A stretch of DNA of 64,000 nucleotides. It comes from Candidatus Hydrogenedentales bacterium. Its GTDB lineage: Bacteria; Hydrogenedentota; Hydrogenedentia; Hydrogenedentales; SLHB01. The notes beneath the pieces are model-generated. The model was not told the origin of the DNA and searched no databases. It worked only from the letters and a program-made list of their open reading frames with translations. Below are positions 14,734-36,571 of the stretch, piece after piece. The DNA lies in the NCBI GenBank assembly GCA_050950105.1, contig JBMNGZ010000008.1:121416-185415 (forward strand), read 5' to 3'. How positions within the stretch are numbered: the stretch's first letter is position 1; each line of letters starts with the position of its first letter. The position numbers and the translations under genes were made by a program.

Positions 14734-14957
14734 TGCGTCCGCAGATTACGCAGATGAACGCAGCTTGTTCAAAAGGAGATGAACTGACCTGCGCCATTAT
14801 TGGCGCGGCCAAGGCGGTTCATTCCGAGCTGGGCAATGGATTCAAAGCCCTGCTGATCAATTTCGGGACCAGAAGCCTTCGACATGAGAGGCTCGTCCTC
14901 AATCTGCGAGAATCCGCGTCATCTGCGGATAATTCTTTTGCAGGGGGCACGCCATGA
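14733..14957 (+). pseudogene. Internally deleted GxxExxY-family protein remnant
   Basis: Family-like N-terminus ELTCAIIGAAKAVHSELGNGF joined directly to C-terminus LLINFGTRSLRHERLVL. The central ExxY region is missing. Confidence 0.65.
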
Positions 14958-16563: not shown

Positions 16564-17598
16564 ATGAGCGAACTGACTGAAAACAATCACGGCCGGGACT
16601 ACGCACACCTTCTCGCCGAGGTGAAAGAGCGCGTTCGTTCGGCCCAGTACACCGCGCTGAAAGCAGTCAATACCGAACTGGTCGGGTTGTATTGGGATAT
16701 CGGGCGGATGATCGTGGAACGACAGACAGACGCCGAGCATGGCACAGCCATCGCCGAACAGTTGTCCAATGACCTGCGGACGGAGTTTCCAGGAATCAGC
16801 GGTTTTTCCAGGCGCAATGTGTTCTACATGCGGGAGTTTTACCTGCTTTACTGCGATGACAAGCGAGTGCAACCACTGGTTGCACAAATCGGATGGACTC
16901 ATAATCTGGTGATATTCCAACGCTGCAAAGACCCCATGGAACGTGAATTCTACATCCGCATGACCCGCAAGTTCGGCTGGTCCAAGAACGTGCTCATTCA
17001 CCAGATCGACAACCAGAGTTATGAAAAATCCCTGCTCGGCCAGACCAATTTCGACCAGGCGCTCACACCGGAACTTCGCGCCCAGGCCAGGCTGGCGGTG
17101 AAGGATGAATACACCTTCGGTTTTCTGGAATTGGATGAGGAGCACAGCGAACGGGAGCTGGAACGGGCGCTCATTGCCCGGATCGAGGATTTTCTGCGGG
17201 CCATGGGCGGCATGTTCGCCTTTATGGGAAGCCAGTACCGGCTGGAGATCGATGGCAAAGAGTTTTTTGTCGACCTCTTGCTGTTTCATCGGCGCCTGCG
17301 CTGCCTTGTCGCCATTGAATTGAAAGTCGGCGAATTCCTGCCGGAGTTCGTCGGCAAGATGCAGTTTTACCTGACCGCGCTGGACCGGCAGCTTCGTCAG
17401 GAAGACGAAAACTCTTCCATCGGCATCATTCTATGCAAAGAAAAAAGCCGCACCATTGTCGAGTACGCCCTGCATAACAGCCGCAAGCCCATTGGTGTGG
17501 CAACGTATAAAATTACCCGCACACTGCCCAGGGAGCTAAAAGGACAACTCCCCCGGCCGGAAGAGATTGCAGCCTTGCTGCAGGAGATTGAAGAATGA
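16564..17598 (+). CDS. YhcG/DUF1016 PD-(D/E)xK nuclease-family protein
   Basis: VNTELVGLYWDIG, GFSRRNVFYMREFY, KDEYTFGFL, DLLLFHRRLRCLVAIELK, GKMQFYL, IGIILCK. Confidence 0.9.
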   Translation: MSELTENNHGRDYAHLLAEVKERVRSAQYTALKAVNTELVGLYWDIGRMIVERQTDAEHGTAIAEQLSNDLRTEFPGISGFSRRNVFYMREFYLLYCDDKRVQPLVAQIGWTHNLVIFQRCKDPMEREFYIRMTRKFGWSKNVLIHQIDNQSYEKSLLGQTNFDQALTPELRAQARLAVKDEYTFGFLELDEEHSERELERALIARIEDFLRAMGGMFAFMGSQYRLEIDGKEFFVDLLLFHRRLRCLVAIELKVGEFLPEFVGKMQFYLTALDRQLRQEDENSSIGIILCKEKSRTIVEYALHNSRKPIGVATYKITRTLPRELKGQLPRPEEIAALLQEIEE

Positions 17599-18803
17599 GT
17601 GCGCAATCCCTGAAGCCCCGCTGGAAGATGGTAAAATTTGGCGAGGTGGTGAAGGACGCCAATCTCGTGGAGCGTGACCCCGAGGCCAACAATATTGAGC
17701 GCGTTGTGGGGCTCGAACACATCGATCCCGAGAATCTGCACATTCGTCGCTGGAACTCCGTTTCCGATGGCAGCTCATTTACCCGTAAATTCGTGCAGGG
17801 ACAGACACTTTTCGGCAAGCGCCGGGCTTATCAACGCAAGGTCGCCTATGCCGAGTTTGAGGGCATTTGCTCCGGAGACATCCTGACCTTCGAGCCAAAA
17901 AACACAAAGGTTTTGCTGCCGGAACTTCTGCCGTTTATCTGCCAGAGCGATGCCTTCTTTGATCATGCGTTGGGTACTTCGGCAGGCTCTCTATCACCCC
18001 GAACCAGCTGGAAAGCACTTAAAGAGTTTGAATTCCCCCTCCCTCCCCTTGATGAACAGAAACGCATTGCCGAGATCCTGTGGGCAGCAGATGAGGCGGT
18101 GGAGGCCTATGAGTCAGTTACACAGAATATAGAGAGAGCAATTAATGCTTATAGCGACAAAAAACTTCTCTTACACGAAGCGAGAAAAAAAAAGCCGAAT
18201 ATACCTTCTGGATGGAGAATTGGTTTTCTCCATGAAATTGCACAAATAGACCCTCCTATGCCAAAGGGGTTACCGGACGATCTTGAAATCTCGTTCGTGC
18301 CAATGGAAAGTGTCGATGAAGAAGGTAGTATAAGTAAGCTCGAGATAAAGAAGCTTGGCGAAGTGAGAAAAGGATATACCTACTTTGAAGAAAATGATGT
18401 TCTGTTCGCAAAAATTACCCCTTGTATGGAAAACGGAAAAGGGGCAATAGCTGTTTCTTTAAAAAATAACAAAGGGATGGGAAGCACTGAGTACTACGTA
18501 TTTAGAGCGATCAAGTCGGAGGATACTCAGTTTATTTACCACCTGACGATGTCTGGCGTTTTTAGAAAGAGAGCTGAAAAGTGGATGCAAGGATCGGCTG
18601 GGCATCGCCGAGTTCCAAAAGATTTTTTTGCGCGACGAGCAATTGTCATTCCCGACTCTGAAAGCAGGAGAAAAATTAGCTTTGTCTTGAATAGCCTTCA
18701 ATCACAGAAATTCGAGGCTCGCAGACACATTGATGTAATAAGAAAAATTCTTGCTGTTTTTCTGCAAAAAAGCCTAAGCCAGACAGGAGCCGCTCATGTT
18801 TAA
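17595..18803 (+). CDS. hsdS: Type I R-M specificity subunit
   Basis: WKMVKFGEV, PLPPLDEQKRIAEIL, IPSGWR, DVLFAKITPCMENGK, STEY, MQGSAGHRRVP; two TRDs. Confidence 0.92.
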   Translation: MSAQSLKPRWKMVKFGEVVKDANLVERDPEANNIERVVGLEHIDPENLHIRRWNSVSDGSSFTRKFVQGQTLFGKRRAYQRKVAYAEFEGICSGDILTFEPKNTKVLLPELLPFICQSDAFFDHALGTSAGSLSPRTSWKALKEFEFPLPPLDEQKRIAEILWAADEAVEAYESVTQNIERAINAYSDKKLLLHEARKKKPNIPSGWRIGFLHEIAQIDPPMPKGLPDDLEISFVPMESVDEEGSISKLEIKKLGEVRKGYTYFEENDVLFAKITPCMENGKGAIAVSLKNNKGMGSTEYYVFRAIKSEDTQFIYHLTMSGVFRKRAEKWMQGSAGHRRVPKDFFARRAIVIPDSESRRKISFVLNSLQSQKFEARRHIDVIRKILAVFLQKSLSQTGAAHV

Positions 18804-18927: not shown

Positions 18928-20073
18928 ATGAAATTTGAGTCTTTCAAGTCCGGCAGTTGGAAACAGCAGTACCAGTACAAGAGTTTTCAGCCGGCACGGA
19001 TCAATGAGGAATGGTCCTGGGATGACCCCCGAATCAACGTGCTGCTGGAAAAGGCCACCAAAGCTCTGGGAGAGTTGAACGCCTTCACGTTGATCGTACC
19101 CGATGTGGATCTTTTCATTCACATGCACATCATCAAGGAGGCTAACACCTCCAGCCGTATCGAGGGCACCCGCACTGAGATGGACGAGGCCGTGCTTGAT
19201 GAGGCGGCTATTCGTCCTGAACGCCGCGACGACTGGCGCGAGGTGCGTAACTATGTGCAGGCCATGAATAGCGCGATTGACGAACTACAGCGACTGCCTC
19301 TGTCCATGCGCCTGCTTCGCAATACCCATGAGATCCTTTTGAGCGGGGCCAGGGGGGAGCGCAAGGCTCCCGGTGAATTTCGGCGCAGTCAGAATTGGAT
19401 TGGTGGCGCTTCTCTATCTGATGCGGCTTTTATCCCGCCCCATCCTGACGATCTTCCTGACCTGCTGACAGATCTTGAAGCTTTCTGGCATAACGACAGC
19501 GTCCATGTCCCACACCTGGTACGATGTGCCCTCAGCCACTACCAGTTTGAAACCATTCATCCCTTTCAGGATGGCAATGGCCGTATCGGCCGCCTGCTCA
19601 TCACGCTGTACCTGGTCAGTCACGGTCTGCTGAACAAGCCTTCTCTCTACCTGTCCGCCCATCTGGAGAAGCATCGGGGAGCCTACTATGATGCCCTGAC
19701 GCGGGTTCGGGAGTCCCATGATATTGGCCAGTGGGTACGTTTTTTTCTCCAGGCAGTGATCGAGACTGCTGAAAACGGAAAGCAGACCTTTGAGCGTATT
19801 TTGGCTTTGCGTCAGGAGGTGGATGCTCAAATCGTGACTTTGGGACGTCGGGCGGAAAATGGCCACGTTCTGATGCGACGTCTTTACCAGGAACCGGCTG
19901 TGAATGTAAATCAGGTGGCAGATCTGCTTGGGATTAAATATTATGCGGCCAATCAGCTGGTGGGGGCTTTGGTTGACCTTGGGATTCTGCAGGAAATGAC
20001 GGGCTGGCAACGAAACCGGCTTTTTGTCTTCCGCAGGTATCTGAATGTTTTTCGCGATGAAAATGCAACATAA
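18928..20073 (+). CDS. Fic-family protein with C-terminal HTH
   Basis: Fic motif HPFQDGNGRIGR, SSRIEGT, PGEFRRSQNWIGG. Confidence 0.93.
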   Translation: MKFESFKSGSWKQQYQYKSFQPARINEEWSWDDPRINVLLEKATKALGELNAFTLIVPDVDLFIHMHIIKEANTSSRIEGTRTEMDEAVLDEAAIRPERRDDWREVRNYVQAMNSAIDELQRLPLSMRLLRNTHEILLSGARGERKAPGEFRRSQNWIGGASLSDAAFIPPHPDDLPDLLTDLEAFWHNDSVHVPHLVRCALSHYQFETIHPFQDGNGRIGRLLITLYLVSHGLLNKPSLYLSAHLEKHRGAYYDALTRVRESHDIGQWVRFFLQAVIETAENGKQTFERILALRQEVDAQIVTLGRRAENGHVLMRRLYQEPAVNVNQVADLLGIKYYAANQLVGALVDLGILQEMTGWQRNRLFVFRRYLNVFRDENAT

Positions 20074-20172
20074 AATATCTTGTTGTGCATTTGGGGGCTT
20101 AAAACACAATAAGAATCCGTTTGTTCTCTTTTTTGTATCACAACGCATCACCGTCGGCTAAATTTGCGGGAG

Positions 20173-23160
20173 ATGAATGTGAGTTACTTCAACGAAGAAA
20201 ACACGATTGAACAGCTCGTGCTGGACACGCTGTCTGACAGGGACAATCAGTGGTGCGTTGCCGAGCCGCAAGCTGATTATCTCGATTCCCACCTCAGTCT
20301 TCAGATTTCAAACCTCCGCTGGCGATTTGCGCCCGCGGAATCCTTGCCGCGCCCGCATTCCGACGTGCTGGTGGAGTCGATGGTGCGCGACGCCCTCATC
20401 CGCCTGAACCCGGAAATCGAGGCCCAGCCCGACCGCGCCGACGAGGTGCTCTACCGCCTGCGGGCCATTGTGTTGTCGGTGCAGAGCGAGGGCCTGGTGC
20501 GGGCCAACGAACTCTTTGCCGAATGGCTGCGAGGCGAGAAATCCATGCCCTTCGGCGAGCGTGGCGAACATACGCCGGTACGCCTGATCGACTTCGAGAA
20601 TCTCAGCAACAACGATTACGTGGTCACCAACCAGTGGGTTTATCCGGTCAAGGAAGGCGGCCGCCGCTTCGACATTATCCTGCTGGTCAACGGCATCCCG
20701 CTGGTGATCGGCGAGGCCAAGACGCCGGTGCGCCCCGCGGTGACCTGGGTGGACGGGGCCAGCGACATCCACAACGGCTACGAACAGAGCGTGCCGCAGA
20801 TGTTTGCGCCGAACATTTTTTCCTTTGCCACCGAGGGCAAGTGCTTTCGCTACGGCTCGGTGCGCATGCCCATCGAGCTTTGGGGGCCCTGGCACGAGGG
20901 TGAAAACAAGGCCGAAGGGACGCTTGCAGACGTTCAGCGTTCCCTCCGCTCCATGCTGCGCCCCCATGTGGTGCTGGACATCCTGCAGAACTTCACCCTC
21001 TTCGCCACCGACAAGAAACACCGGCGCATCAAGATCATCTGTCGCTACCAACAATACGAGGGCGCTAACCTGCTGGTGGACCGCGTGGTCAAAGGTTTTC
21101 CGAAGAAGGGCCTGATCTGGCATTTCCAGGGCTCGGGCAAATCGCTGCTGATGGTCTTCGCGGCACAAAAATTGCGAATGCACCGCCGGCTGGGCAACCC
21201 CACAGTACTCCTTGTGGTGGACCGCATCGACCTGGACACCCAGATCACGGCCACCTTCAACGCCGCCGATATCCCGAACATGATCGGAGCGTCTACCCGG
21301 CAGGAGCTGCAAAACCTGCTGGCGGCCGATACCCGCAAGATCATCATCACCACGATTCATAAATTCGGCGAGGCGGACGGCCGCCTGAACGAGCGCTCGA
21401 ATATCATCGTCATGGTGGACGAGGCGCACCGCACCCAGGAAGGCGATCTCGGGCGCAAAATGCGAGAGGCGTTGCCCAGGGCTTTTCTATTTGGCCTGAC
21501 CGGCACGCCGATCAACAAACGGGACCGAAACACTTTCTGGGCTTTCGGCGCAGACGAGGATGAGCAGGGCTACCTGAGCCGCTACTCCTTCCAAGACTCA
21601 ATCCGAGATAAGGCCACATTACCACTGCATTTCGAAGCGGTGGATGTGAAACTGCGCATCAACAAGGGCGCTATCGACGAAGCCTATGCTGAAATCACCA
21701 ATGAGTTGAGTGAACTGGATCGCGACGACCTGGCCAGGCGTGCTGCCAAGATGGCGGTGTTGATTAAGGCTCCGGTGCGGGTGAACGCCATTTGTCAGCA
21801 CATCGTAAAGCACTTCCAGGAGAAGGTAGAACCGAACGGCTTCAAAGCCCAGGTGGTGACTTTCGATCGCGAGTGCTGCGTGCTCTACAAAAAGGCCATG
21901 GACGAATTGATCGATCCGGAGACCAGCCGCATCGTCATGCACGTCCAGGGCGGCAAATCGGACGAATATGCAGAATGGAAATTGAGCAAAGATGAGGAAG
22001 AAAGACTGCTGGATCGCTTCCGTGACCCTAACGATCCGCTCAATTTCCTGATCGTCACGTCCAAGCTGCTAACGGGTTTTGATGCTCCGATTCTGCAGGT
22101 GATGTATCTGGACAAGCCGATGAGAGATCACAACCTCCTGCAGGCCATCTGCCGTACCAACCGCGTTTATCCCGACAAGACGCACGGCCTGATCGTCGAT
22201 TATCTGGGTATTTTTGATGAGGTGGCCACAGCGCTCGATTTCGATGAAAAGGCGGTCCAGAAGGTCATCACCAATCTGGATGACCTCAAGAAAGAGCTGC
22301 CCGGCGCGGTTGCAAGCTGCCTGGCCTTCTTTCCTGGCGTAGATCGCACCGTGGGCGGCTACGAGGGACTCATCACGGCACAGGATTGCCTGCCCAATAA
22401 CGAGGCCCGGGACAGTTTTGCGGCCGAATTCTCGGTGCTATCCCAGCTGTGGGAGGCGCTGTCTCCCGATCCCTGTCTCGCCCCTCATGAAAAGGACTAC
22501 AAATGGCTCACTCAGGTCTATGTGTCGGTGAAGCCGCCCAGTGGCAATGGCAAACTGCTTTGGCACGCCTTGGGAGCGAAAACCATCGAATTGGTGCATG
22601 AGAATGTGCATCTGGAGATGGTGCGCGATGATCTGGAAACCCTGGTGATGGACCCTGAAATATTTGAAGAGCTGCTCGCTGCGAAAGATCCTGACAGGAA
22701 ATCCAGGGAAATAGAGAACAAGATAATTACCCGGCTCCGCAAACACCAGAACATTCCAGAATTCATCGCCCTGGGCGAACGCCTCGAAAAACTCAGAGAA
22801 CGGCACGAGCAGGGTCTGCTGCATAGTATAGATTTCCTCAAAGAGCTGCTGACCCTCGCCAAAGAGGTCGTTCAGGCCGAAAAACAGGCTAACCCTGCCG
22901 ATGAACAAGCCAAGGCCAAAGCGGCTCTGACCGAATTGTTCGCCGAGGTTAAGAATGCCAAAACGCCGGTGGTAGTTGAGCGGATCGTCACCGATATTGA
23001 CGAGATCGTCCGGCAGGTCCGTTTTCCCGGTTGGCAAAACACCAAGTCAGGGGAACGCGATGTACAAAAAGCCTTGCGCAGGGTGATTTACGTGAAGTAT
23101 CAGATCAAAGACCAGGATCTATTCGATAAGGCTTTTGGATATATACGTCAGTACTACTAG
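20173..23160 (+). CDS. hsdR: Type I R-M restriction subunit
   Basis: DIILLVNGIPLVIGEAK nuclease motif, WHFQGSGKS, DEAHR, TGTP, LLTGFDAP, QAICRTNR. Confidence 0.95.
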   Translation: MNVSYFNEENTIEQLVLDTLSDRDNQWCVAEPQADYLDSHLSLQISNLRWRFAPAESLPRPHSDVLVESMVRDALIRLNPEIEAQPDRADEVLYRLRAIVLSVQSEGLVRANELFAEWLRGEKSMPFGERGEHTPVRLIDFENLSNNDYVVTNQWVYPVKEGGRRFDIILLVNGIPLVIGEAKTPVRPAVTWVDGASDIHNGYEQSVPQMFAPNIFSFATEGKCFRYGSVRMPIELWGPWHEGENKAEGTLADVQRSLRSMLRPHVVLDILQNFTLFATDKKHRRIKIICRYQQYEGANLLVDRVVKGFPKKGLIWHFQGSGKSLLMVFAAQKLRMHRRLGNPTVLLVVDRIDLDTQITATFNAADIPNMIGASTRQELQNLLAADTRKIIITTIHKFGEADGRLNERSNIIVMVDEAHRTQEGDLGRKMREALPRAFLFGLTGTPINKRDRNTFWAFGADEDEQGYLSRYSFQDSIRDKATLPLHFEAVDVKLRINKGAIDEAYAEITNELSELDRDDLARRAAKMAVLIKAPVRVNAICQHIVKHFQEKVEPNGFKAQVVTFDRECCVLYKKAMDELIDPETSRIVMHVQGGKSDEYAEWKLSKDEEERLLDRFRDPNDPLNFLIVTSKLLTGFDAPILQVMYLDKPMRDHNLLQAICRTNRVYPDKTHGLIVDYLGIFDEVATALDFDEKAVQKVITNLDDLKKELPGAVASCLAFFPGVDRTVGGYEGLITAQDCLPNNEARDSFAAEFSVLSQLWEALSPDPCLAPHEKDYKWLTQVYVSVKPPSGNGKLLWHALGAKTIELVHENVHLEMVRDDLETLVMDPEIFEELLAAKDPDRKSREIENKIITRLRKHQNIPEFIALGERLEKLRERHEQGLLHSIDFLKELLTLAKEVVQAEKQANPADEQAKAKAALTELFAEVKNAKTPVVVERIVTDIDEIVRQVRFPGWQNTKSGERDVQKALRRVIYVKYQIKDQDLFDKAFGYIRQYY

Positions 23161-23278: not shown

Positions 23279-24838
23279 TCAGGCCTTTTGCGCCTCTTGC
23301 CTTTCCAGAAACTTCTGTACGGCTTGGGGAGAGATTCCCAGCAAGCGCGCCGCCTTGCTCTTGTTTCCGCCCGTAAACTCAAGCGCTTGAACAAAGAAGC
23401 GTTTTCGGGCTTCCTCCAAAAACGATTTGACGCAGAAGCCTTCGTGGGGCAGGGGAAACGTCTGCAGGGCGGCCTTTAGACTCTGGTCGCGCGAGAAGAC
23501 CACGTCACCGGCATCGATTACATCCCCTTTGGAAAACAGACACGACTGCGAAAGAACGTTGTGCAAGTCTCGCACGTTGCCCGGCCACGAGTGCTGTTGG
23601 AGTTTCCGTAATGCGCCCCGGGAGAGTTGTTTGGGTGTCCGCAACTGTTGGTTGATCCCGTCAAGGAGATGAAGCGCTATTCGCGGGATGTCACTGGGTC
23701 TCTCGCGCAGGGCGGGTATCTGCAGTTCCACCGAGGCCAAACGGTAATACAGGTCCTCTCGGAATTCCCGTTTCGCGGCTCGCTCCCGCAGATCCCGGTT
23801 GCTTGCGGCAACAATGCGGACATTGACTTTTTTGGCCTTTCTTGCACCGATGGGTTGGACCAGGCCGTCCTCCAGAACTCTCAGCAGTTTTACCTGAACA
23901 TCGAGCGGGAGTTCGCCCACCTCGTCCAGGAAAAGCGTGCCGTTGTCTGCGGTCGCGAACCTCCCCTCCTGGTCACGCACGGCTCCGGTAAAGGCCCCTT
24001 TGATATGCCCAAACAGAGTGCTTTCCGCGAGATCCTTTGGAATCGCGCCGCAATTCAGGGGAACGAATGGTGCGGTTACACGGTCGCTCAACATGTGAAT
24101 CAGGCGCGCGAGCAGTTCCTTGCCGGTGCCCGTCTCCCCGGAGATCAGCACCGTCAGCGTGCTCGCAGCCGCTATTCTCGTGCGCTCAAGTACCTCTATC
24201 ATCTGAGGATGGTCTCCGACGATCCCCAGTTTGGCACGTGCCGTGTGCAACGCGGAATCCGATGGCCTGGATACGTCTTCTGCGCCGCCCTGGCGTCGTG
24301 AACGGGCGGGCGGGCGCTCTCTGCGTGCCACGCTCTCTGCCCGCGGAGGGACGCCTTTTCCCATCTGGAAAAGGCTCTCCGGGTCCAGTTCCATTACCGG
24401 AGGCACGTCGTCCGTCACAAACCTTGGCGGACGCGCCTGCAGCAGTCGCACAGGAAAAGGAGTCTCATTCAAAAGCACCAGCCAGCACGCATGGATTTGC
24501 GGTGTCCCGGATGCCACGGAAACGAAGAAACTCGCTTTCGGAAAAGCTCGGCGCAGTTTGTCCAATTCGAGGCGCATCACGGCCAATATGGCACGGTAGT
24601 CCGTCGGGTCAGCCAGTGGTACGTCGCGAAGGTCTACGGCTATATGGGGAAAGCGCGTTTCCAACGCCTCGCACGTGTGCTCCGCGCTCTCTCGCATGCC
24701 AGGCGTACCAAACAGGACCACACGATCAAAGGCGCGGTGCCCAAGCACCGTGAGTACTGGTCCCGGCAGCTCGTCTCCTTCCAATACACCAAACGCATAG
24801 GGGTCGTGATTGCCTGTAAACGTCAATAAGATATCCAT
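23279..24838 (-). CDS. Sigma-54-dependent activator (bEBP) with N-terminal CARF/RtcR-like sensor domain
   Basis: Start MDILLTFTGNHDP (ATG 24838, gaggtg RBS). CARF-like GPVL, DPTDY and VSVASGTPQ. AAA+ GETGTGKE, intact GAFTGA, FLDEVG, FREDLYYRL. Fis HTH GNKSKAARLLGISPQAV. Confidence 0.88.
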   Translation of the reverse strand: MDILLTFTGNHDPYAFGVLEGDELPGPVLTVLGHRAFDRVVLFGTPGMRESAEHTCEALETRFPHIAVDLRDVPLADPTDYRAILAVMRLELDKLRRAFPKASFFVSVASGTPQIHACWLVLLNETPFPVRLLQARPPRFVTDDVPPVMELDPESLFQMGKGVPPRAESVARRERPPARSRRQGGAEDVSRPSDSALHTARAKLGIVGDHPQMIEVLERTRIAAASTLTVLISGETGTGKELLARLIHMLSDRVTAPFVPLNCGAIPKDLAESTLFGHIKGAFTGAVRDQEGRFATADNGTLFLDEVGELPLDVQVKLLRVLEDGLVQPIGARKAKKVNVRIVAASNRDLRERAAKREFREDLYYRLASVELQIPALRERPSDIPRIALHLLDGINQQLRTPKQLSRGALRKLQQHSWPGNVRDLHNVLSQSCLFSKGDVIDAGDVVFSRDQSLKAALQTFPLPHEGFCVKSFLEEARKRFFVQALEFTGGNKSKAARLLGISPQAVQKFLERQEAQKA

Positions 24839-24887
24839 GTTCACCTCGGGTCTGATTCGGGAACTCCCCCCCGACCTTCTCATCATC

Positions 24888-24921
24888 CAACCTTGGTTGA
24901 GGAATTTCAACCCGGGTTGAA
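24888..24921. promoter_or_regulatory. Two palindromic CAACC-N2-GGTTG sites, candidate upstream activator sequences
   Basis: caaccttggttg (24888-24899) and perfect palindrome ttcaacccgggttgaa (24906-24921). Centres are 20 bp apart. Confidence 0.65.
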
Positions 24922-24973
24922 GCCAGGATTTGCCCGTTTCCACAAAGAGCCATTCCGGGAGGCACTTTTCGCG

Positions 24974-24990
24974 TTGGCATGCGGCTTGCT
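24974..24990 (+). promoter_or_regulatory. Sigma-54 (-24/-12) promoter facing cas10
   Basis: TTGGCATGCGGCTTGCT matches YTGGCACG-N4-TTGCW at all but one specified position. GG-N10-GC spacing is exact. Confidence 0.8.
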
Positions 24991-25158
24991 GAACCTCTGT
25001 TGCATAACTACAATGGGCATGGATGCCGCGCATGGTATACGCAGCGATGGTCGCAGCTAGCAGACATCATCCATGCAGGCCCTGGCGGGGGGCTTTATCC
25101 GATTGCTCAACAGGCCTTTCTCGATCAGCAGGGTCGCAAGTGACATACGGAGGGTTGT

Positions 25159-27606
25159 ATGGACACCAAGCTTGAACGTCTGGCGACGGCCGCGCTGCTC
25201 CACGATATTGGGAAGTTCTGGAGCAGAACGGGAGCACCCAGGCCATTCACAGAACAGGAAGCGGCCCATTTCAGTGGCTCCTGGCAGTATGCGCTCTGGA
25301 CCGGCCAGTTCGTGGAACAATATCTCGAGGATGCCGAACTTGCCGCCTGGGCCAGGATGCACCATTCGCCTGATTCTATCGAATCCAGCATCATCTCCCT
25401 GGCCGACTGCTTGTCTTCCGGAGAGCGGAGGCTGGACGATACACAGCAGACCGGCGCGCCCGAATCCGCGCCACTGGTAAATATTCTCAGCTGTCTGCGA
25501 ATTTCGGAGGAACAGCCGGAGTGCGCGCCGCGAAGCGTGCTGCCGTTGTCTCAGCACGGGGATTTTGAGGCAGCGTCGCTCCCTCTGTCTGCCGAGACGA
25601 CGCTTTCAAAGGACGATTACGGTGCGCTCTGGAAGGCATTTTCGGCGCAGGCTGAATGCGCCGGGCGGCGGCCTCTGCGCCACAGCACCTGGCTGGCGCT
25701 GATCCGCCGCTTTTGTTCGCGCATACCGGCAGCCACGCCTACCCGCGTGGGCGCGTGGATACCGGACATCAGCCTCTACGACCATGCACGCACCACCGCT
25801 GCCATTTCGGCGTGCCTTTATGCCCAAGGCCTATCGGAGGCGAAGGTATCGGAACTGCGGACCGCCCTCAGCAGCAGGAAAGCAGGCCACCCGGTTCTAG
25901 CCGAACCCATCTGCCGCCTCATTTGCGGAGATTTGTCCGGGATACAGCAATTTCTCTACACCATCGCCACGAAGCATGCCGCCAAAACCCTTCGTGGCCG
26001 TTCTTTCGCGCTGCAGCTTGTTGCCGAGGCCTGTGCCCTCTACCTCTGCGAACAGGCGGGCGTGCCGGAATGCTGCATCCTCTACAACGGCGGGGGACGG
26101 TTTTACGCCTTGCTACCCGTGAAAACCGACGTCCAGGCCATGGCAGATTGCCTCAGCGAGCGGGTTCATGCGGCCTTTGAGGGCCGTTTGTCGATGCATC
26201 TGGGTGATGTAGCGGTTACTCCATCAGATTTTCAGGCGGGCCGGTTCTCGCAGCTCTGGGCTGCCGCCGGGCGGGCGGCAACGGCTGAGAAAGCGCGCAA
26301 ATATACGATGCTGGCCCGCAACGACTACGACGCGGTGTTTGGGTTCCAGGATCAGGGGGGAGAAACGTCCAAATGCTCCGTATGCGGCGCGGAAGGCAAA
26401 CTTCAGCCCTACGAGGCGGATATCGAAGTTTGTGAGGACTGCGCCGAATATGAGGAACTCGGCAGGCATCTCCCGTACGCCCAATGGCTGGTCCGGAGCG
26501 CTCCCACGGACCGTTCAAGTGCGCTCCACAGATTTTTTAACACGCTCGGCTGCGATTATACGATCGCCGTCAAAGCCGAGGAGGTACAGCGTCTGGACGC
26601 CTGGGAAATCACGCAGTTGAACGGTTTTGACATCAAGGGGCTCGAGGCATTGAGGCCTCCGTCCAACTGCGCATTGAACTACCGGCTCACCGCGCGCGCC
26701 TGGCCTCGCGACAATAGCGGAAGCGTCCTGACCTTTGAGGAGATGGCGGCACAGGCCCGCGGCACGAAGAAGCTTGGCGTTTTCCGGGCGGACGTGGATA
26801 ACCTGGGCGCGCTGTTCAGCCTGGGCCTGGGCGACGGCGCCACCATGAGCCGGGTGGCGGCGGTCAGCACCCTGCTGTCCGACTTTTTTGAGGGATACCT
26901 CCATCACCTGGTGGATACGGAGTATGCGAATACCGTGGGCGTGGTCTTTGCCGGGGGCGACGACCTCTTTGTCGTGGGCGCGTGGGACGATATATTTGAT
27001 TTTGCCGTGCGGCTGGGCCGGGATTTTGATACCTATACCGGTGCGAACCCCGATCTCACATTCTCAGGGGGAATCGTCATCGTAGACGATCATCTCCCGA
27101 TACGCTATGCCGCCCAGATGGCTGCGAACGCCGAGGAAACCGCAAAATCCTATTCGCGTGGCGGGCGTGAAAAAAATGCCCTCACGCTGTTTGGCACTCC
27201 CCTCGGGTTCGAGGAATTGCCGGCGTTCACCAGTTTCAAAGAGCTGCTGCTTGACACGTTGGCCCCCGCAGATGGGCCCGGCGTGCCCAAATCGTTTCTG
27301 CGGCGGCTCTTCGACATCTGGGAAGCCTATCTGCGCGAACGGAAAATCATCGACCGGCGTGTCCGAGGGCGCGATCCAACGCTCGAGACCGCCAAGGCCG
27401 AGGCGCGCTGGCAACGCTGGCGCTGGCTGCTCGTGTATGGCATCCGCAAATTCGCGAAGAGTTGCTCCGAACGGAGCGCCGAAATCAAGGAAGTTCAACG
27501 GCGCCTGCTGGAACCGTATGAAGGGAAACTGTCAATCGAGGATCGGCTCGGCGTGCCCCTGCGGTGGGTCGAGCTGCTAACGAGGGAGGAACGTCGGGAT
27601 GAGTGA
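25159..27606 (+). CDS. cas10: Type III-A CRISPR Cas10/Csm1
   Basis: HD motif ALLHDIGK, DISLYDH, GDLSGIQQFLY, LRGRSF, CxxC..CxxC, ADVDNLG, intact Palm2 FAGGDDLF. Confidence 0.96.
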   Translation: MDTKLERLATAALLHDIGKFWSRTGAPRPFTEQEAAHFSGSWQYALWTGQFVEQYLEDAELAAWARMHHSPDSIESSIISLADCLSSGERRLDDTQQTGAPESAPLVNILSCLRISEEQPECAPRSVLPLSQHGDFEAASLPLSAETTLSKDDYGALWKAFSAQAECAGRRPLRHSTWLALIRRFCSRIPAATPTRVGAWIPDISLYDHARTTAAISACLYAQGLSEAKVSELRTALSSRKAGHPVLAEPICRLICGDLSGIQQFLYTIATKHAAKTLRGRSFALQLVAEACALYLCEQAGVPECCILYNGGGRFYALLPVKTDVQAMADCLSERVHAAFEGRLSMHLGDVAVTPSDFQAGRFSQLWAAAGRAATAEKARKYTMLARNDYDAVFGFQDQGGETSKCSVCGAEGKLQPYEADIEVCEDCAEYEELGRHLPYAQWLVRSAPTDRSSALHRFFNTLGCDYTIAVKAEEVQRLDAWEITQLNGFDIKGLEALRPPSNCALNYRLTARAWPRDNSGSVLTFEEMAAQARGTKKLGVFRADVDNLGALFSLGLGDGATMSRVAAVSTLLSDFFEGYLHHLVDTEYANTVGVVFAGGDDLFVVGAWDDIFDFAVRLGRDFDTYTGANPDLTFSGGIVIVDDHLPIRYAAQMAANAEETAKSYSRGGREKNALTLFGTPLGFEELPAFTSFKELLLDTLAPADGPGVPKSFLRRLFDIWEAYLRERKIIDRRVRGRDPTLETAKAEARWQRWRWLLVYGIRKFAKSCSERSAEIKEVQRRLLEPYEGKLSIEDRLGVPLRWVELLTREERRDE

Positions 27607-27964
27607 GTTCGCAATAGCCGTAGAAAAGGGCATCGACAATACCTTCGTCAAGTGGGCCGACGGATTTGGACAGAGTATTGCCCGCGGCGTCACGACCAGC
27701 CAGATCCGCAACATCTTCGGCAGTGTTAAAAAGCTCGAGATGAGCGGAGACCTCGACCTGCCGCAATTGCTGCTGCTGAAACCCAAAATCGCCTATGCAC
27801 GGCAACGAACCAGAGGATTGGCGCCGCTGGCAGACCAGCTCACGTCGGCCATCGATGCGGTCGATGCCGCCAGCGACCCGGCCGGTAAACAGGAACGTTT
27901 CCAGCGCTTCTGCCAAGGGTTCGAAGCCATTCTTGCCTACCATCGCGCGCATGGCGGCAAATAA
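27599..27964 (+). CDS. csm2: Type III-A small subunit Csm2
   Basis: TTSQIRNIF, LLKPKIAYA, FEAILAYH. Confidence 0.93.
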   Translation: MSEFAIAVEKGIDNTFVKWADGFGQSIARGVTTSQIRNIFGSVKKLEMSGDLDLPQLLLLKPKIAYARQRTRGLAPLADQLTSAIDAVDAASDPAGKQERFQRFCQGFEAILAYHRAHGGK

Positions 27965-27982: not shown

Positions 27983-28753
27983 ATGACGGAATTGAGACAT
28001 ATCGGACGAATCAAGATTTCAGGGCGTATCGAGGCCCTTACCGGGCTGCATATCGGAGGGACCGAGGTCGGGCTGGCGATCGGCGGGGCCGACAGCACCG
28101 TGGTGCGCAACGGTCTGGACGGCCGGCCCTACATTCCCGGCTCGAGCCTGAAGGGCAAGATGCGCTGCCTGCTGGCGCGCGTGTACACCCCCGGCAGGCT
28201 CGAGGACCCGCGCGGCAGCAGATTCCCGCGATTGTTCAAAGTGACCAGCAGAGAGGAATACGAGGATCCCTCGAAGTCTTTCCTCTTTCACATCTTCGGC
28301 GTGACGCCCGAGGAAATTCGCAAGCTCGAGGGGGAAGCCCTTCCCACGCGGCTTATCGTGCGCGACGCCATGATGACCGATGAAACCGCCGAGGCCCTCG
28401 AACGGAGCCTCTACACCGACATGCCCATGACGCAAGTGAAAACGGAAGTGATTATCGACCGCATCACCTCGCAGGCCACGCCCCGACAAATGGAGCGCGT
28501 GCCTGCCGGCGCCCAGTTCGCTTATGAACTGGTCTTCAACGTGTTCTTTGAGTCCGACCTCGCGTTTCTGCCGTATGTGGCGGAAGCGATGGATCTGCTC
28601 GAGAACGACTATCTCGGCGGGCAGGGCTCCCGCGGCTATGGCCAGGTGCAGTTCACAACCTGTCAGGTGGATGTCGTGTCGTTTAATGGCGTCGATCTGG
28701 CCGCGAAAAACGAGGTGGCGGCCTTCAGGCAAACCGTGGAACGCGGAGTGTAA
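27983..28753 (+). CDS. csm3: Type III-A Csm3 (Cas7)
   Basis: TGLHIGG, IGGADSTVVR (catalytic Asp present), PYIPGSSLKGKMR, ERVPAG, YLGGQGSRGYG. Confidence 0.95.
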   Translation: MTELRHIGRIKISGRIEALTGLHIGGTEVGLAIGGADSTVVRNGLDGRPYIPGSSLKGKMRCLLARVYTPGRLEDPRGSRFPRLFKVTSREEYEDPSKSFLFHIFGVTPEEIRKLEGEALPTRLIVRDAMMTDETAEALERSLYTDMPMTQVKTEVIIDRITSQATPRQMERVPAGAQFAYELVFNVFFESDLAFLPYVAEAMDLLENDYLGGQGSRGYGQVQFTTCQVDVVSFNGVDLAAKNEVAAFRQTVERGV

Positions 28754-28758
28754 GCGCC

Positions 28759-29763
28759 ATGGAAATCTATCGCGTGCACATCCGGCCCAGGGCGCCCTTT
28801 TTCAATGGGCCCCACAGCCGCGCGCCCAAAACGGGGGCGTTGGTCCATTCCGACACGTTGCATGCAGCCTTGGTGAGCGTCGCGGCCATGCACGGCTCAC
28901 CCCTGCTCAAACGCGCGGAAACCCTGCGGGTCTCGTCGCTGTATCCGAGCTGGGGGGGAGTCTGCTTCCTGCCGAAACCGTTTTTGCGTCCTCCCGGCGA
29001 AGAGGGGGCGAGCAATCCGCTCGAACGCAAACGATGGAAGACGATCCGGCTGGTCTCTGAAGGCATGCTTACGGCGTGGCTCGCTGGCGCCCTCGAGGAA
29101 TCGCAATTGGCCTCGGAAGCCCCGGCCGGGTGCGCCCTGCTGCAGGATGAGCTGCCCACGGGAGCGCCCGTGCCTCGCGCGCTGATGGCGGAGGAGATTT
29201 CGGCGGCCGTCGCCGTTGACCGGCACGGTGCGGGCACGATGCCCTTCGATCGCCGCGGATTGCGCGTCAACACCGGTGAAGGGTGCGGTGCGTATTTTCT
29301 CGCCGAGCTGGAGGACGCCGAATCCGGCCCATTTCGCGCTCTGGCCGACCACCTGGGCGAGCAAGGGCTGGGCGGGGAACGCTCGGTCGGCTACGGCCGC
29401 TTCGAGGTCGCATCGTGTGAGCCCGTTGGCGGCACATTGTTCGCGACGCACGGCGCTGCCGATGCCTTCCTGACCCTGAGCCTCTACCTGCCCACGGAGG
29501 AGGAAGTCGCGGCGGGAGCGCTCGAGGCGCCCGCGGCCTACGATTGCACCGTGCGCGGCGGATGGATACACAGCGCGGGCGGCACGACCCAGCGAAAGCG
29601 CTCGCTCCGCATGTGCGTTGAAGGCGGCGTCTTCAAAAAAATCTCCGGCCGGCACGGTGACGTGCGCAACACGGCCCCTGCCTCTTTTACGAGGCATCCC
29701 GTCTACCGTTCCGGCTTGGCCTTCGAACTCCCGTTCCAGTTCAAGGAGGGTATCCACTCATGA
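28759..29763 (+). CDS. csm4: Type III-A Csm4 (Cas5)
   Basis: HSDTLHAAL, VSSLYP, FLPKP, GLGGERSVGYG, RGGW, HPVYRSG. Confidence 0.92.
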   Translation: MEIYRVHIRPRAPFFNGPHSRAPKTGALVHSDTLHAALVSVAAMHGSPLLKRAETLRVSSLYPSWGGVCFLPKPFLRPPGEEGASNPLERKRWKTIRLVSEGMLTAWLAGALEESQLASEAPAGCALLQDELPTGAPVPRALMAEEISAAVAVDRHGAGTMPFDRRGLRVNTGEGCGAYFLAELEDAESGPFRALADHLGEQGLGGERSVGYGRFEVASCEPVGGTLFATHGAADAFLTLSLYLPTEEEVAAGALEAPAAYDCTVRGGWIHSAGGTTQRKRSLRMCVEGGVFKKISGRHGDVRNTAPASFTRHPVYRSGLAFELPFQFKEGIHS

Positions 29764-31010
29764 GTACCAGTCGTCAAATCCAGGGTCATTTCGTATTGAC
29801 CCCCATCAGCCCGGTGCACATCGGCTCGGGCGAGATCCTCCAGGGGCTCGACTATACTCTGCGCGGCGACCAGTTTGCCGTCAAGGATGTCCTGGCCTTT
29901 TTCGAAGCCCACAAGGACAATACGAAATATGCCCTCGACGCCGTCGAGACCGGGCTCGACATCGGCGAAGACTACGTCCGGTACCGGATTCCGGCCTGCG
30001 CCGAGCCAGCGAGAAAAAAGCGAGGTCCACAGCGCGGCGGACCGCCCCGAAAAGACCAACCCTTTCTTGAAGGAAGGAGACCTCGGGGGCGAAAGACCAA
30101 GATGGACGCTCAAATGGCGAAGCTCCAGCGCCAGTCGGCTAGAAAGTATGGCGCGTCGCAGACCCCGAAAAAGCCTGACCCGCAGTCGGATGGGGGCGGC
30201 GGGGAGGTGCGCGCGTTCATCAAAGACCCCTTTGGCCAGGTGTTTTTCCCGGCCACGTCCTTCAAGGGCACCGTGCGGACCGCCCTGGCCTGTCACCTGG
30301 CCGAACAGGCTCCCGATGCATTCGCAGCCGCCCTGCGCGGGGTCGGGCGGCAGCGCAGGCAGAGCCCGGCATTTCAGCCCATCAAAGACGCCCTGTTTGG
30401 AAGAAGTGCCCATGAAGACCTGCTCAAGGCTCTGCGCATCCAGGACTCCCAGCCTCTGGCCCCGGAGGCCTGCCTCTTTTTGGCCCAGGTCAAGGTCATG
30501 AATGTTTTCCGCGGGCGGTTCAGCGAGAAACGCGGCGTGCCGATCCAGGCCGAATGCCTTGTGCCGGGAACGAATGGCATTCGGCTGCCGTTCCAGATCG
30601 ACCGGTTCGCGCTCGAGCGAGACCATGCGCTCAAACGCCCCCTCAAGGGCACGGGCGCGGCCCTCCTGCAGGACCGCGCCGCCTTCGAACACGCCTTGCG
30701 CGCTCATGGAGCGGCCCTGGCCCAGTACGAAAGCGATTTCTATGCCGGCCAGAACGAAACCCGCGCCCAACGCTTCTTCCAGAACCTCATCGGCAGCCAA
30801 CACATCCATCTGCCCGTCGGTTTTGGAACGGGCTGGCACACCAAGACCGTTGGCCGTCTCATCCCGGAGAGCGATCTCGCAAGACTACGCGAGAGAGGCG
30901 TCCTGAAGCGCCCGGCTGCGGCCATTTTTCCCAAAACACGCAAATGGGCCCGCTGTAAAGAAGGAGAGCTGCCTATGGGATGGCTCAAGGTCGCCATCGA
31001 ATGGAAATAG
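29760..31010 (+). CDS. csm5: Type III-A Csm5 (Cas7-like)
   Basis: TPISPVHIGSGE, FIKD, PATSFKGTVRTAL, LRIQDS, VGFGTGWHTKT, FPKTR, PMGW. Confidence 0.9.
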   Translation: MSTSRQIQGHFVLTPISPVHIGSGEILQGLDYTLRGDQFAVKDVLAFFEAHKDNTKYALDAVETGLDIGEDYVRYRIPACAEPARKKRGPQRGGPPRKDQPFLEGRRPRGRKTKMDAQMAKLQRQSARKYGASQTPKKPDPQSDGGGGEVRAFIKDPFGQVFFPATSFKGTVRTALACHLAEQAPDAFAAALRGVGRQRRQSPAFQPIKDALFGRSAHEDLLKALRIQDSQPLAPEACLFLAQVKVMNVFRGRFSEKRGVPIQAECLVPGTNGIRLPFQIDRFALERDHALKRPLKGTGAALLQDRAAFEHALRAHGAALAQYESDFYAGQNETRAQRFFQNLIGSQHIHLPVGFGTGWHTKTVGRLIPESDLARLRERGVLKRPAAAIFPKTRKWARCKEGELPMGWLKVAIEWK

Positions 31011-31265: not shown

Positions 31266-32175
31266 GTTGAAGAAGATGACCTGATGAAGAAGGGATCGAA
31301 ACAATGAGTGCATATGCCACTTCACTTTCCGCTTCAGTTGAAGAAGATGACCTGATGAAGAAGGGATCGAAACTCCAGAAGGAATCTAAGCCTTTCCATG
31401 GCCTCGATGAGTTGAAGAAGATGACCTGATGAAGAAGGGATCGAAACCGATTGACCCCGACAACGACAAGACCGGGTATTAGGTTGAAGAAGATGACCTG
31501 ATGAAGAAGGGATCGAAACTGATTTTATTTAACGTTCTTTTGAATTGGAACAGGACGTTGAAGAAGATGACCTGATGAAGAAGGGATCGAAACTTATTCT
31601 CGAACGCTATCGCTTCTTCGTAATACAGACTGTTGAAGAAGATGACCTGATGAAGAAGGGATCGAAACACGTATTGTGCCAATTTCTCATGGAACACCAC
31701 CCATGTTGAAGAAGATGACCTGATGAAGAAGGGATCGAAACTGGAACCCCTTCAGAATGTTGGGGTTCTTCGCATCGGTTGAAGAAGATGACCTGATGAA
31801 GAAGGGATCGAAACGTTGTCACGAACACACGTTTTGCTACGCGTACCTGCAGTTGAAGAAGATGACCTGATGAAGAAGGGATCGAAGCCTCTCCAATTCT
31901 TTCCATTTCCGAATGGAGAAGGACTGTTGAAGAAGATGACCTGATGAAGAAGGGATCGAAACGCATCCAAATCTTCCAGTGTTTCAGCCTTGAAATGCGT
32001 TGAAGAAGATGACCTGATGAAGAAGGGATCGAAACTCGAGGCCCACAGCATCGGGATTCTCGATCTCCAGCAGTTGAAGAAGATGACCTGATGAAGAAGG
32101 GATCGAAACCCACCAGCGCGGGCCCTCGTCCCAGTCTTGCACGGCCGTTGAAGAAGATGACCTGATGAAGAAGGG
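31266..32175 (+). CRISPR. CRISPR array: 13 repeats (last degenerate), 12 spacers of 34-38 bp
   Basis: 37-bp repeat GTTGAAGAAGATGACCTGATGAAGAAGGGATCGAAAC starting at 31266, 31337, 31411, 31483, 31557, 31632, 31705, 31778, 31852 (ends GAAGC), 31926, 31999, 32073 and 32147 (truncated). Confidence 0.99.
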
Positions 32176-32494: not shown

Positions 32495-33922
32495 ATGAAG
32501 ATATGTCTCATCGCAAACGTGGGTAAGCGGGATTTGCAGCTGGACGGCGCCCCGCTGCCTGCCAAGGGAGAAGGCGGCCTTCGTGGGCAGGCTGCCGCGC
32601 TTCTGAAGGACTACGACACGGTCCGGGAGCGTCTCAGTGCGCCGATGATTTTGCCCGCGCTGGGACGGATCTTCCGGCTGAGAGCGGAACGCATCGCGGC
32701 GCTCCTGCTGGTGGCGACCGACCAGGAAGATGAGGCTTTTCGAGGCGGAGACACCATTGAATGCGCTGAAGTGCTGAAACGGTTCGTGTTCGACCAGTGC
32801 TCGCGAGGGAAGGCGCCGGAAAAGAAGCAGCTCACGCAAGAACCGATTGTGGTACGGATTTCCGAGGCCCCTCACCAATACGACCGCATGGCGGATTTTT
32901 ATCGGAAGAAAATAGTCACGGAGAAAGCGTTGCGCGATGCGGATTGCGTATATCTCTTGTGCGCGGGCGGCACCCCGGCATGCAATACGGCCTTGCTTCT
33001 CGCGGGCGTGGCGCGGTTTCGGGAGAAGTGCGAGGTGCTCAACGTGGACGAAGGGACCGGCACCGTCGGGCTATTGAGCATCGGGCGGGAGATGCTCGAC
33101 GGGTACCGCAGAGAAGCGCGGGGCCGCCTGCTCGAGCGCTGGGATTTTGACGCCATCGCCTGCGATCCTGCCTACGACACAACCCTGCGCCAGGTGGCCG
33201 AGGCTGCGGAAGCCCGGCTGAACTTCGATTTTGAGCGCCACGAACGGCTTGTCGCGGATTTGGCTCCCACCGAGGCCCGGCACCGGCGCGACTTGGATGC
33301 CCTGGACGTGGAGGCCCAATACCTGACGAAACTTTGCGACGAAGCAAAGCTTTTGCAGGAACTCTTTTGGAATGCTCATGTCAAATGGCAGCGGAACGAA
33401 TGCGCGGATTTTCTGGGGCGGGTGTGGCGCTTGTGCGAGGCGGCGTTGTACCGCGTTGTGGGCCAGATCACGGGGCTTAAATTTGACGGCACGCGTAAAT
33501 CCGAGGTGTGTTTTGAGCGCTGGGCATCCGCCCAGAGCGGGCTGATGGAATGGGTGCAAAAAGAGATGCGGCAGCCTCAGGTCGCGCTCCGGCCAAATAC
33601 CGAAATTCTGCAACATACCCTGACTTATATGATTCAGCCGGAGAATCTTTCGCGCTTTCCTGCGGCGCCCCCGGAACTGGGCGAGATTGCGCGCCAGGTT
33701 AAAGCGCTGTACAGAGCGCGCGGACTTCGCAATAAGTCGATTATCGCCCACGGCTATCAGGGCTTATCAAAGGAAGGCATCCGCAAAGCACTTGGAAACG
33801 ACGAGACGAGCCCTTTCGAAACCTTACAGAGACTCCTGGAAGCCCAGGGTGTTGCCATCAACGACAATCCTTTTGATCGCTATGCGAAACTCATACGCGC
33901 GCTCGATAAGGACGGTGCCTGA
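32495..33922 (+). CDS. CARF-HEPN ancillary ribonuclease (Csm6/Csx1-like)
   Basis: CARF-like LIANVGKRD, ATDQ...DT, LCAGGTPA. C-terminal HEPN motif RNKSIIAHG. Confidence 0.82.
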   Translation: MKICLIANVGKRDLQLDGAPLPAKGEGGLRGQAAALLKDYDTVRERLSAPMILPALGRIFRLRAERIAALLLVATDQEDEAFRGGDTIECAEVLKRFVFDQCSRGKAPEKKQLTQEPIVVRISEAPHQYDRMADFYRKKIVTEKALRDADCVYLLCAGGTPACNTALLLAGVARFREKCEVLNVDEGTGTVGLLSIGREMLDGYRREARGRLLERWDFDAIACDPAYDTTLRQVAEAAEARLNFDFERHERLVADLAPTEARHRRDLDALDVEAQYLTKLCDEAKLLQELFWNAHVKWQRNECADFLGRVWRLCEAALYRVVGQITGLKFDGTRKSEVCFERWASAQSGLMEWVQKEMRQPQVALRPNTEILQHTLTYMIQPENLSRFPAAPPELGEIARQVKALYRARGLRNKSIIAHGYQGLSKEGIRKALGNDETSPFETLQRLLEAQGVAINDNPFDRYAKLIRALDKDGA

Positions 33923-35407: not shown

Positions 35408-35528
35408 TGCTAAGTTCGCCCTTCGGCGCAGGGCCAAAATGCGCGATGGTTGGATATTTCGGGCGCGAACACTCTGTGAATACGGCTGGTCGCGAGCAGT
35501 GAAAACTGTGTGCCGCGGGCAGCGGGTA

Positions 35529-36410: not shown

Positions 36411-36486
36411 TGGAGCTGGAGGGGGGAATCGAACCCCCGACCTCATCATTACGAGTGATGCGCTCTGCCAACTGAGCTACTCCAGC
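36411..36486 (-). tRNA. tRNA-Thr(CGT)
   Basis: Reverse complement GCTGGAGTAGCTCAGTTGGCAGAGCGCATCACTCGTAATGATGAGGTCGGGGGTTCGATTCCCCCCTCCAGCTCCA; 76 nt, CCA end. Confidence 0.97.
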
Positions 36487-36495
36487 AAAAAAAAA

Positions 36496-36571
<76 letters not shown>

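Follow-up and report, generated by a model that had tools for sequence, protein, structure and literature searches.

We analyzed a 64,000-nucleotide stretch of the genome of a Candidatus Hydrogenedentales bacterium (contig JBMNGZ010000008.1, positions 121,416 to 185,415; hereafter the window), in which an operon for type III-A CRISPR-Cas, headed by cas10, lies divergent from a gene for an RtcR-like bacterial enhancer-binding protein (bEBP). The 320-bp gap between the two genes holds a pair of palindromic sites (dyads) and a sigma-54 promoter box aimed at cas10. The elements of this region are, from left to right:

23279-24838, minus strand: activator (bEBP), 519 aa; an RtcR-like CARF domain is followed by a sigma-54 interaction AAA+ domain, which contains GAFTGA, and at the C terminus by a Fis-type helix-turn-helix (HTH; AARLLGISPQAVQKFL)
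24882-24910, minus strand: weak sigma-70-like promoter of the activator gene, -35 element TTGAAA at 24910-24905, 17-nt spacer, -10 element GATGAT at 24887-24882
24888-24899: promoter-distal dyad CAACCTTGGTTG, read from the sequence, centre 24893.5, about -107.5 from the predicted start
24906-24921: promoter-proximal dyad ttCAACCcgGGTTGaa (equal to ttCAACCCGGGTTGaa), core CAACCCGGGTTG at 24908-24919, centre 24913.5, about -87.5
24975-24990, plus strand: sigma-54 -24/-12 box TGGCATGCGGCTTGCT, near-consensus, one mismatch, 11/12
25001-25158, plus strand: predicted csm leader, 158 nt, with GGAGG at 25149-25153, 5 nt ahead of the ATG
25159-27606, plus strand: cas10/csm1, 815 aa, with HD motif LLHDIGKF and cyclase motif GGDD (FAGGDDLF)

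The activator and its intergenic region

Both dyads are perfect 5-N2-5 palindromes of the form CAACC-N2-GGTTG, and their centres are 20 bp apart. Their coordinates, this spacing and the position of the box had been given in an earlier sequence-only reading of the window, and all are borne out by direct reading of 24600-25300. Sigma-54 promoters follow the consensus TGGCAC-N5-TTGCW, in which exactly 10 nt separate a GG from a GC dinucleotide, and the box has this spacing: in TTGGCATGCGGCTTGCT, which spans 24974-24990, GG lies at 24976-77 and GC at 24988-89. Its score is a simple count of matches to the consensus TGGCACG-N4-TTGCW. Promoters of this class start transcription some 12 nt past the GC and need both rpoN and an activator; from the position of the box, the csm transcript is predicted to start near 25001.

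Upstream activating sequences of bEBPs consist of dyad sites, usually at least two, which precede the -24/-12 box at a distance of about 80-150 bp, and the window dyads follow this layout. The sequence-only reading had placed them ~90-110 bp upstream of the predicted start, which agrees with centres at about -107.5 and -87.5; from site start to box start the distance is 87 bp for the distal dyad and 67 bp for the proximal one. The same plan is found with NtrC at glnAp2 and PspF at pspA, where two dyad sites on one helix face lie ~80-140 bp upstream of a -24/-12 promoter, although the half-site sequence and the sensory domain differ from those of the window. The predicted csm leader (25001-25158) has no Rfam match, and its fold is no stabler than those of shuffled sequences (z = +1.0).

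The activator has the motifs of a sigma-54 activator. It carries Walker A, the GAFTGA loop and Walker B (GETGTGKE, KGAFTGA and TLFLDEVGE), which are invariant in the alignment of homologues, and it is matched by the Pfam models Sigma54_activat (8.7e-66), HTH_8 (4.1e-8) and RtcR (2.2e-6; 27.7 bits against a cut-off of 23.1). Among solved structures, its closest sequences are NifA, NtrC1 and ZraR. The gene start at 24838 (MDILLTFTG...) agrees with homologue N-termini; a longer frame extending to 25033 was rejected as spurious, since homologues begin at the equivalent of MDILLTFTG. The genome also encodes rpoN (Sigma54_DBD match 1.3e-62, contig C4, 19162-19635, in a 481-aa frame).

The order of domains, a divergent CARF followed by AAA+ and HTH, is that of the RtcR family, and the PADLOC model RtcR_PspF2--CARF_AAA_HTH fits far better than the model of canonical RtcR (5.5e-134 vs 2.5e-63). 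RtcR proper adjoins and controls rtcB and rtcA; here the neighbors are hsdR and cas10-csm2-5, and the protein is therefore an RtcR-like paralogue of the PspF2 branch. The closest known protein is P0004, whose CARF domain shares 70% identity with that of the activator.

Taken together, the sites, the box, the domain content of the activator, the presence of rpoN and the conservation of the layout, all read directly from sequence, point to one arrangement: the dyads probably are the upstream activating sequence of the divergent RtcR_PspF2-type activator, which would drive the csm promoter through sigma-54.

Recurrence of the dyad beside homologous activators

When the double palindrome at the window spacing was sought by DNA alone in one genome per species (185,579 species), eight loci were obtained. 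In one of them, L099, from a Verrucomicrobiota metagenome-assembled genome, two dyads lie 27-58 bp past the stop codon that ends the gene for an activator of 514 aa. This activator shows 44% full-length identity to that of the window (E 2e-143), with nearly the same recognition helix, and it matches better than any protein from a whole-protein search of the species genomes. A sigma-54 box (TGGCACGTCTTCTGCA) follows 115 and 135 bp beyond these dyads, and then a small KTSC-domain gene. In a second locus, L097 (Vicinamibacterales contig, 6641-6676), the dyads abut the stop codon of a sigma-54 activator open reading frame (ORF) that ends just after Walker B (GGTLFLDEIGE) and may be a truncated or disrupted gene. 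Apart from these, L100 (Roseomonas contig, 5291-5440) holds successive CAACC..GGTTG-like repeats next to a gene that reads by eye as a ParA P-loop ATPase, and these repeats may form a partition site based on a similar palindrome.

Loci were also picked solely by the C-terminal peptide of the activator, which gave nine new loci in a first scan and 80 in a second; activators of the compared loci are at most 53% identical to that of the window. In the first scan, the exact dyad stands beside the gene in L120, L122 and L127, and also occurs in L118, where its placement relative to a disrupted gene is ambiguous. The symmetric variant CAACT-N2-AGTTG is found in L121 and L125 and a site with one mismatch in L124; L123 and L126 have no dyad. 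In L120, L121, L122, L125 and L127 a box with a score of 9/12 or more follows, and the best box of L124 has a non-consensus -12 element. L122 is divergent, as in the window, with two sites 21 bp apart and 30-72 bp from the start codon.

For the second scan, sites were counted within 350 bp of the gene ends, and boxes were accepted if they scored at least 9/12 and lay 40-260 bp beyond the site. The exact dyad is present in 12 of the 80 loci (11 past the stop codon, one ahead of the start), and a dyad with at most one mismatch in 36, with 29 of the 80 also having a sigma-54 box beyond it. The L099 contig is among the 80, and the new loci account for 11/79 exact and 35/79 near-exact sites. Nine other permutations of the half-site letters, used as controls, gave 0/80 exact matches and 0-3/80 at one mismatch or fewer.

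These counts bear on whether the dyads could instead be the operator of an unrelated regulator encoded elsewhere, lying near the box incidentally. The double palindrome does occur beside genes for an ECF sigma factor (L096), ChrB/MFS proteins (L103) and a response regulator/TPR protein (L101), as such an operator might. Yet selection by HTH alone recovers the exact dyad where none of the control palindromes appears, the sites are phased to sigma-54 boxes, and the window has no other HTH gene within 10 kb of the dyads, the nearest being an HTH_17 ORF at 34976-35437. We regard an unrelated regulator as very improbable.

The position of the site relative to the promoter is likewise constrained. 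Of 44 distances from site start to box start, 19 fall at 87-92 bp, 12 at 109-117 bp and 5 at 133-137 bp, with 8 elsewhere, forming clusters at ~90, 112 and 135 bp; the distal dyad of the window (87 bp) is inside the main cluster. The steps of ~22 bp equal the spacing of adjacent sites, which would keep all sites on one helix face. The motif also follows the protein: the HTH helix PQAVHKFL is accompanied by the site in 19/31 loci, and helices in which Q replaces that K (AVSQFQ, AVHQFx) in 0/9, so that HTH sequence and dyad motif appear to go together.

Selection by the whole protein was less informative. A search of the species genomes returned mostly generic AAA+ matches, the best full-length ones 33-38% identical, and the paired site was found in 0/80 of their loci. 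Homologues are few and distant among 61 relatives of the window genome and 101 relatives of the Verrucomicrobiota genome.

The sequence-only reading had staked itself on conservation at orthologous loci. When this was examined, the motif proved to be kept beside homologous activators and set at fixed distances upstream of their sigma-54 boxes. Its proposal that CAACC-N2-GGTTG is the operator of the activator gains support from this recurrence, from the phasing to boxes, from the intact GAFTGA, Walker and HTH motifs and from the presence of rpoN in the genome.

Within the phylum of the window, 16 of 135 genomes carry a Cas10 homologue, and an RtcR-like activator stands directly upstream of cas10 in seven of the 16: the window itself (divergent), G032, G198, G199, G201 and G203 (tandem), and G185, where the activator is visible only as a C-terminal HTH at the contig edge. 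A sigma-54 box precedes cas10 in G032, G185, G198, G199, G201 and G203; that of G185 is TGGCACGGCAATTGCT, and the four genomes of group g42 share a conserved TGGCA...TTG. The upstream sites of G185 are TAACCCGGGTTA and TAACTCAGGTTA, 21 bp apart, and among cas10-linked relatives such sites vary with the HTH. No activator was found in the available cas10 flank of eight genomes (G022, G042, G229, G010, G029, G222, G054 and G180), and the cas10 contig of G202 ends before the activator position could be judged. As an observation on the activator-cas10 gap of G032 (L012, 13892-14180), a stretch of ~25 nt with CAATTGAAT(A/G)TTGGC occurs twice; the good sigma-54 box is in its second copy, and ~109 bp separate the dyad from the first copy, which is degenerate.

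Outside this group the cargo changes. A metagenome scan with the CARF domain gave three loci at 39-41% identity, two of them G032-like cas10-linked copies. In the 89 HTH-selected loci, which come from other phyla, cas10 was found in no flank, and the genes beside the activator encode HsdR, vWA proteins, a deaminase with HAD, WYL-transglutaminase and ADP-ribosylglycohydrolase. A FastTree phylogeny of 73 activators fits a single origin or several origins of the cas10 link.

Chance, autorepression and the proposed mechanism

Several observations weigh against a role of the dyads as enhancer of the csm promoter. The box alone is unexceptional, the window having two matches at one mismatch or fewer vs 2.78 expected. 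The predicted leader of 158 nt is unusually long, with 184 bp from box start to the cas10 ATG here vs ~45-80 bp in the cas10-linked relatives, and the proximal dyad, at 67 bp from the box, has no counterpart in the other loci, standing one 20-bp step nearer than the main cluster. Six of the eight double-palindrome loci (L096, L098 and L100-L103) have no such activator nearby, which implies that this type of palindrome is also used by other regulators. Moreover, 44 of the 80 HTH-selected loci lack a site at one mismatch or fewer, and many of the 80 are interrelated (e.g., L174/L181, L179/L188 and L225/L227), so that the counts overstate independent events. Finally, G032, the closest cas10-linked relative, keeps only the degenerate sites CAACACAGGTTG and CAACCCGCATTG, and no such motif is found in the g42 genomes, whose HTH differs (PQS/AxSQY).

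The ordinary frequency of the box would fit a chance meeting of GC-rich palindromes with a sigma-54-like string in one intergenic region, and so would the palindrome count: exact CAACCNNGGTTG occurs three times in the 4.62-Mb genome, twice at this locus, and ~4 occurrences are expected from the half-site frequencies (4320 and 4436 counts). CAACC-N2-GGTTG thus has no genome-wide enrichment; its non-random part is that two of the three sites are 20 bp apart, a pairing with an estimated chance of ~3e-5 (3 x 40/4.6e6). Within the window, two exact sites stand against 0.08 expected, and none of 100 shuffles contained two or more. Genome-wide, the box is one of 41 scoring at least 11/12, and the chance of a box this good on the right strand inside the 320-bp gap is estimated at ~0.007; its weight comes from place, strand and conserved architecture. 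With that architecture recurring in dozens of loci from other phyla, coincidence is barely credible as an explanation. Another sigma-54-like string, TGGCACGCGAGCTGCT, again one mismatch from the consensus, is found at 44229-44244 (minus strand) within a gene for a chorismate-binding enzyme (43748-45154) and is probably there by chance.

The region is also kept intact in a ~98.5%-identical variant (contigs from three runs), for which no difference is listed within 24875-25105 and the flanks differ at 24866, 24874, 25106, 25124 and 25140; this would be weak population evidence for the enhancer and promoter.

Another possibility is that the dyads serve mainly for negative autoregulation, by the activator or another HTH protein, with csm activation independent of them. 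The minus-strand sigma-70-like promoter overlaps both dyads, the sites lie 50-83 bp from the activator ATG, and PspF-type activators are known to autorepress via their enhancer sites, which overlap the activator's own promoter in the case of PspF. Against this, the sigma-70 match is weak (a consensus match only, 9/12, with one such site vs 0.4 expected in shuffles), and in 11 of the 12 exact loci and most of the 36 near-exact ones the sites lie past the stop codon of the activator gene, yet still ~90, 112 or 135 bp from a box. We consider a mainly autoregulatory function improbable. As an addition to enhancer function it fares better: the sequence-only reading had suggested that the activator might also repress itself, and at this locus it is plausible that the bound protein damps its own synthesis, because the weak promoter overlaps both dyads in the divergent layout. 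Autorepression would be no trait of the family, however, since the sites come after the activator gene in most relatives.

The same reading had envisaged a defense regulon marked by the motif near sigma-54 boxes, which the genome of the window does not bear out: only the csm promoter unites exact sites with a good box, apart from one co-occurrence that chance alone would predict. The third exact site, at 118141 of contig C4, was considered as a regulon member and rejected; it has no sigma-54 box within 300 bp and lies at or next to the start of a GH123 glycosidase gene.

For the dyads as enhancer of the csm promoter, the following series of events can be proposed. Dimers of the C-terminal HTH would bind both dyads on one helix face, and a signal reaching the CARF domain would let the AAA+ domains assemble. 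The resulting ring would contact sigma-54 RNA polymerase waiting in a closed complex at TGGCAT-N5-CTTGCT (24975-24990), and ATP hydrolysis would open the promoter. Transcription would then run from near 25001 into cas10-csm2-csm3-csm4-csm5 and maybe on into the CRISPR array, csx1 and cas6, so that the type III-A effector complex would be made on demand.

As to the signal, we somewhat favor a general cue of RNA damage or infection of the RtcR type (e.g., 2',3'-cyclic phosphate RNA ends) over cyclic oligoadenylate from Cas10. A profile built from 46 N-terminal (CARF) domains matches Csm6 (6tug, 6.5e-11) and Csm6' (8pcw, 2e-7), with the G.xDP and SGTPQM motifs in common, and both motifs are kept alike in cas10-linked and other activators. 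A strong Cas10-palm match is present in only ~9-10 of 50 genomes hosting such activators, counting strong full-length matches only, since the search cross-matches GGDEF proteins (in an E. coli control too). With most family members away from cas10 and few hosts having a strong Cas10-palm match, the ligand of the family is more likely a general cue, as has been proposed for RtcR (PMC7790460, PMC11090510).

A bolder version, which we hold to be tentative and on balance unlikely, is that the CARF domain senses a product of its own system, either Cas10 cyclic oligoadenylate or 2',3'-cyclic phosphate ends made by Csx1 or Csm3, giving positive feedback, and that CARF activator, dyads ~90-135 bp from the box and the box itself form a portable cassette placed before varied defense cargos across phyla. 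Were this the case, a few resident Csm complexes would, on recognizing a target, switch on the whole csm operon, making type III immunity infection-inducible. A CARF domain reading cyclic oligoadenylate or cleavage products would thereby close a feedback loop within the immune system.

Known systems and the surrounding locus

The control of type III CRISPR-Cas expression in bacteria is largely unknown, and a survey of type III loci, in the portion that discusses regulators, left them for later study (PMC11229360). The locus described here reads as a complete circuit, composed of a CARF sensor from the superfamily of the system's own effectors, a motor that would work on sigma-54 only, a defined candidate enhancer and what would be a tight, normally silent promoter before cas10. 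Whatever the signal, the enhancer consensus with its ~22-bp phasing may offer a route to predicting the targets of RtcR-like activators in the defense islands of many phyla.

The nearest model is RtcR/rtcBA of E. coli and Salmonella, where a CARF-AAA+-HTH activator is likewise encoded divergent from a sigma-54 promoter (TGGCACGACGGTTGCA before rtcB in E. coli) and, according to summaries of that system, is held off by its CARF domain until a signal arrives (PMC9650030, PMC7790460). Unlike rtcBA, the cargo of the window is a type III-A csm operon; the C terminus of E. coli RtcR has a different HTH, the rtcR-rtcB gap has no CAACC-N2-GGTTG, and the CARF profile of the window family matches Csm6 CARF structures, not an RtcR structure.

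RtcR-like CARF activators of the same protein family (RtcR_PspF2--CARF_AAA_HTH) head restriction-modification and CoCoNuT defense superoperons and are predicted sigma-54 activators of the downstream defense genes (Makarova 2014, PMC4012209; Bell 2024, PMC11090510). In the passages devoted to them, both papers predict sigma-54 activation via an upstream activating sequence and give no motif, and the former counts the RtcR-like family as one of the CARF families that do not typically neighbor cas genes. The window differs in having cas10-csm2-5 as cargo and in an enhancer motif and phasing that can be read from the sequence. We found no paper that ties an RtcR-like activator to type III loci or gives the motif, though cas10-linked RtcR-like genes may already appear in the 2020 CARF classification or in supplementary tables; a literature search on the motif letters returned eukaryotic enhancer papers only.

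Three further systems resemble this one in part. Csa3, as portrayed in PMC9704534, also fuses a CARF sensor to a DNA-binding domain and controls cas transcription, but it has no AAA+ motor, does not act via sigma-54 and is mostly linked to type I-A. CalpL-CalpT-CalpS likewise forms a type III-linked path from infection signal to transcription via an alternative sigma factor; there, by the account in PMC11229360, a SAVED-Lon protease (CalpL) frees an ECF-type sigma factor, whereas in the window an enhancer-binding ATPase would act on sigma-54, its target being the effector operon itself. Nla28 of Myxococcus xanthus, also an enhancer-binding protein, has CRISPR-associated genes among its confirmed direct targets; as its preprint outlines (bioRxiv 10.1101/2021.11.28.470282), it is starvation-induced and acts on many loci and is not dedicated to an adjacent cas operon.

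The remaining genes of the type III-A locus, all on the plus strand, are as follows.

27599-27964: csm2 (Pfam Csm2_III-A 1.4e-22)
27983-28753: csm3 (Pfam RAMPs)
28759-29763: csm4 (Pfam RAMPs; Csm4_C 8.5e-14)
29760-31010: csm5 (PADLOC Csm5 1.8e-25)
31482-32175: CRISPR array, 37-nt repeat GTTGAAGAAGATGACCTGATGAAGAAGGGATCGAAAC, period ~73-74 nt (Tandem Repeats Finder)
32495-33922: csx1, CARF-HEPN effector (PADLOC Csx1 2.3e-72)
33922-34923: cas6 (PADLOC Cas6 3e-96; Pfam CRISPR_Cas6 2.4e-15)

With cas10 (Pfam Cas10-Cmr2_palm2 4.3e-33, Csm1_B 3.6e-17 and HD 2.9e-5) carrying both the HD and GGDD motifs, and with csm2-5, cas6 and the CRISPR array, the locus is of type III-A (Csm). By convention, a CRISPR repeat ending in GAAAC gives the strand of the array, which would accordingly be plus. 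Neither cas1 nor cas2 was seen when ORFs were annotated in the 10-45 kb part of the window, the only part of the genome searched for them.

To the left lies a type I restriction-modification cluster, convergent with the activator gene, and the csm locus appears to sit in a defense island (6112-36571) that adjoins tRNA-Thr and tRNA-Phe (36411-36571). Other members of the island are:

13003-14733 and 14954-16492: two hsdM genes
16564-17598: YhcG nuclease gene
17595-18803: hsdS
18928-20073: Fic gene
20164-23160: hsdR
34976-35437: HTH_17 (excisionase-like) ORF

Near the left end of the island, a 1426-aa ORF (6112-10392) reaches no better than E 0.0099 against Pfam and is matched by no PADLOC model, and a DUF3987 protein is split over the overlapping ORFs 10766-11410 and 11317-11979, which correspond in turn to the two halves of the Pfam model and are probably a frameshifted gene. 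Beyond the island, genes of menaquinone-type biosynthesis begin at 36810. In csm2, 166 bases (27671-27836) are swapped for 169 unlike letters in the ~98.5%-identical strain (contigs from three runs), with the flanks alike.

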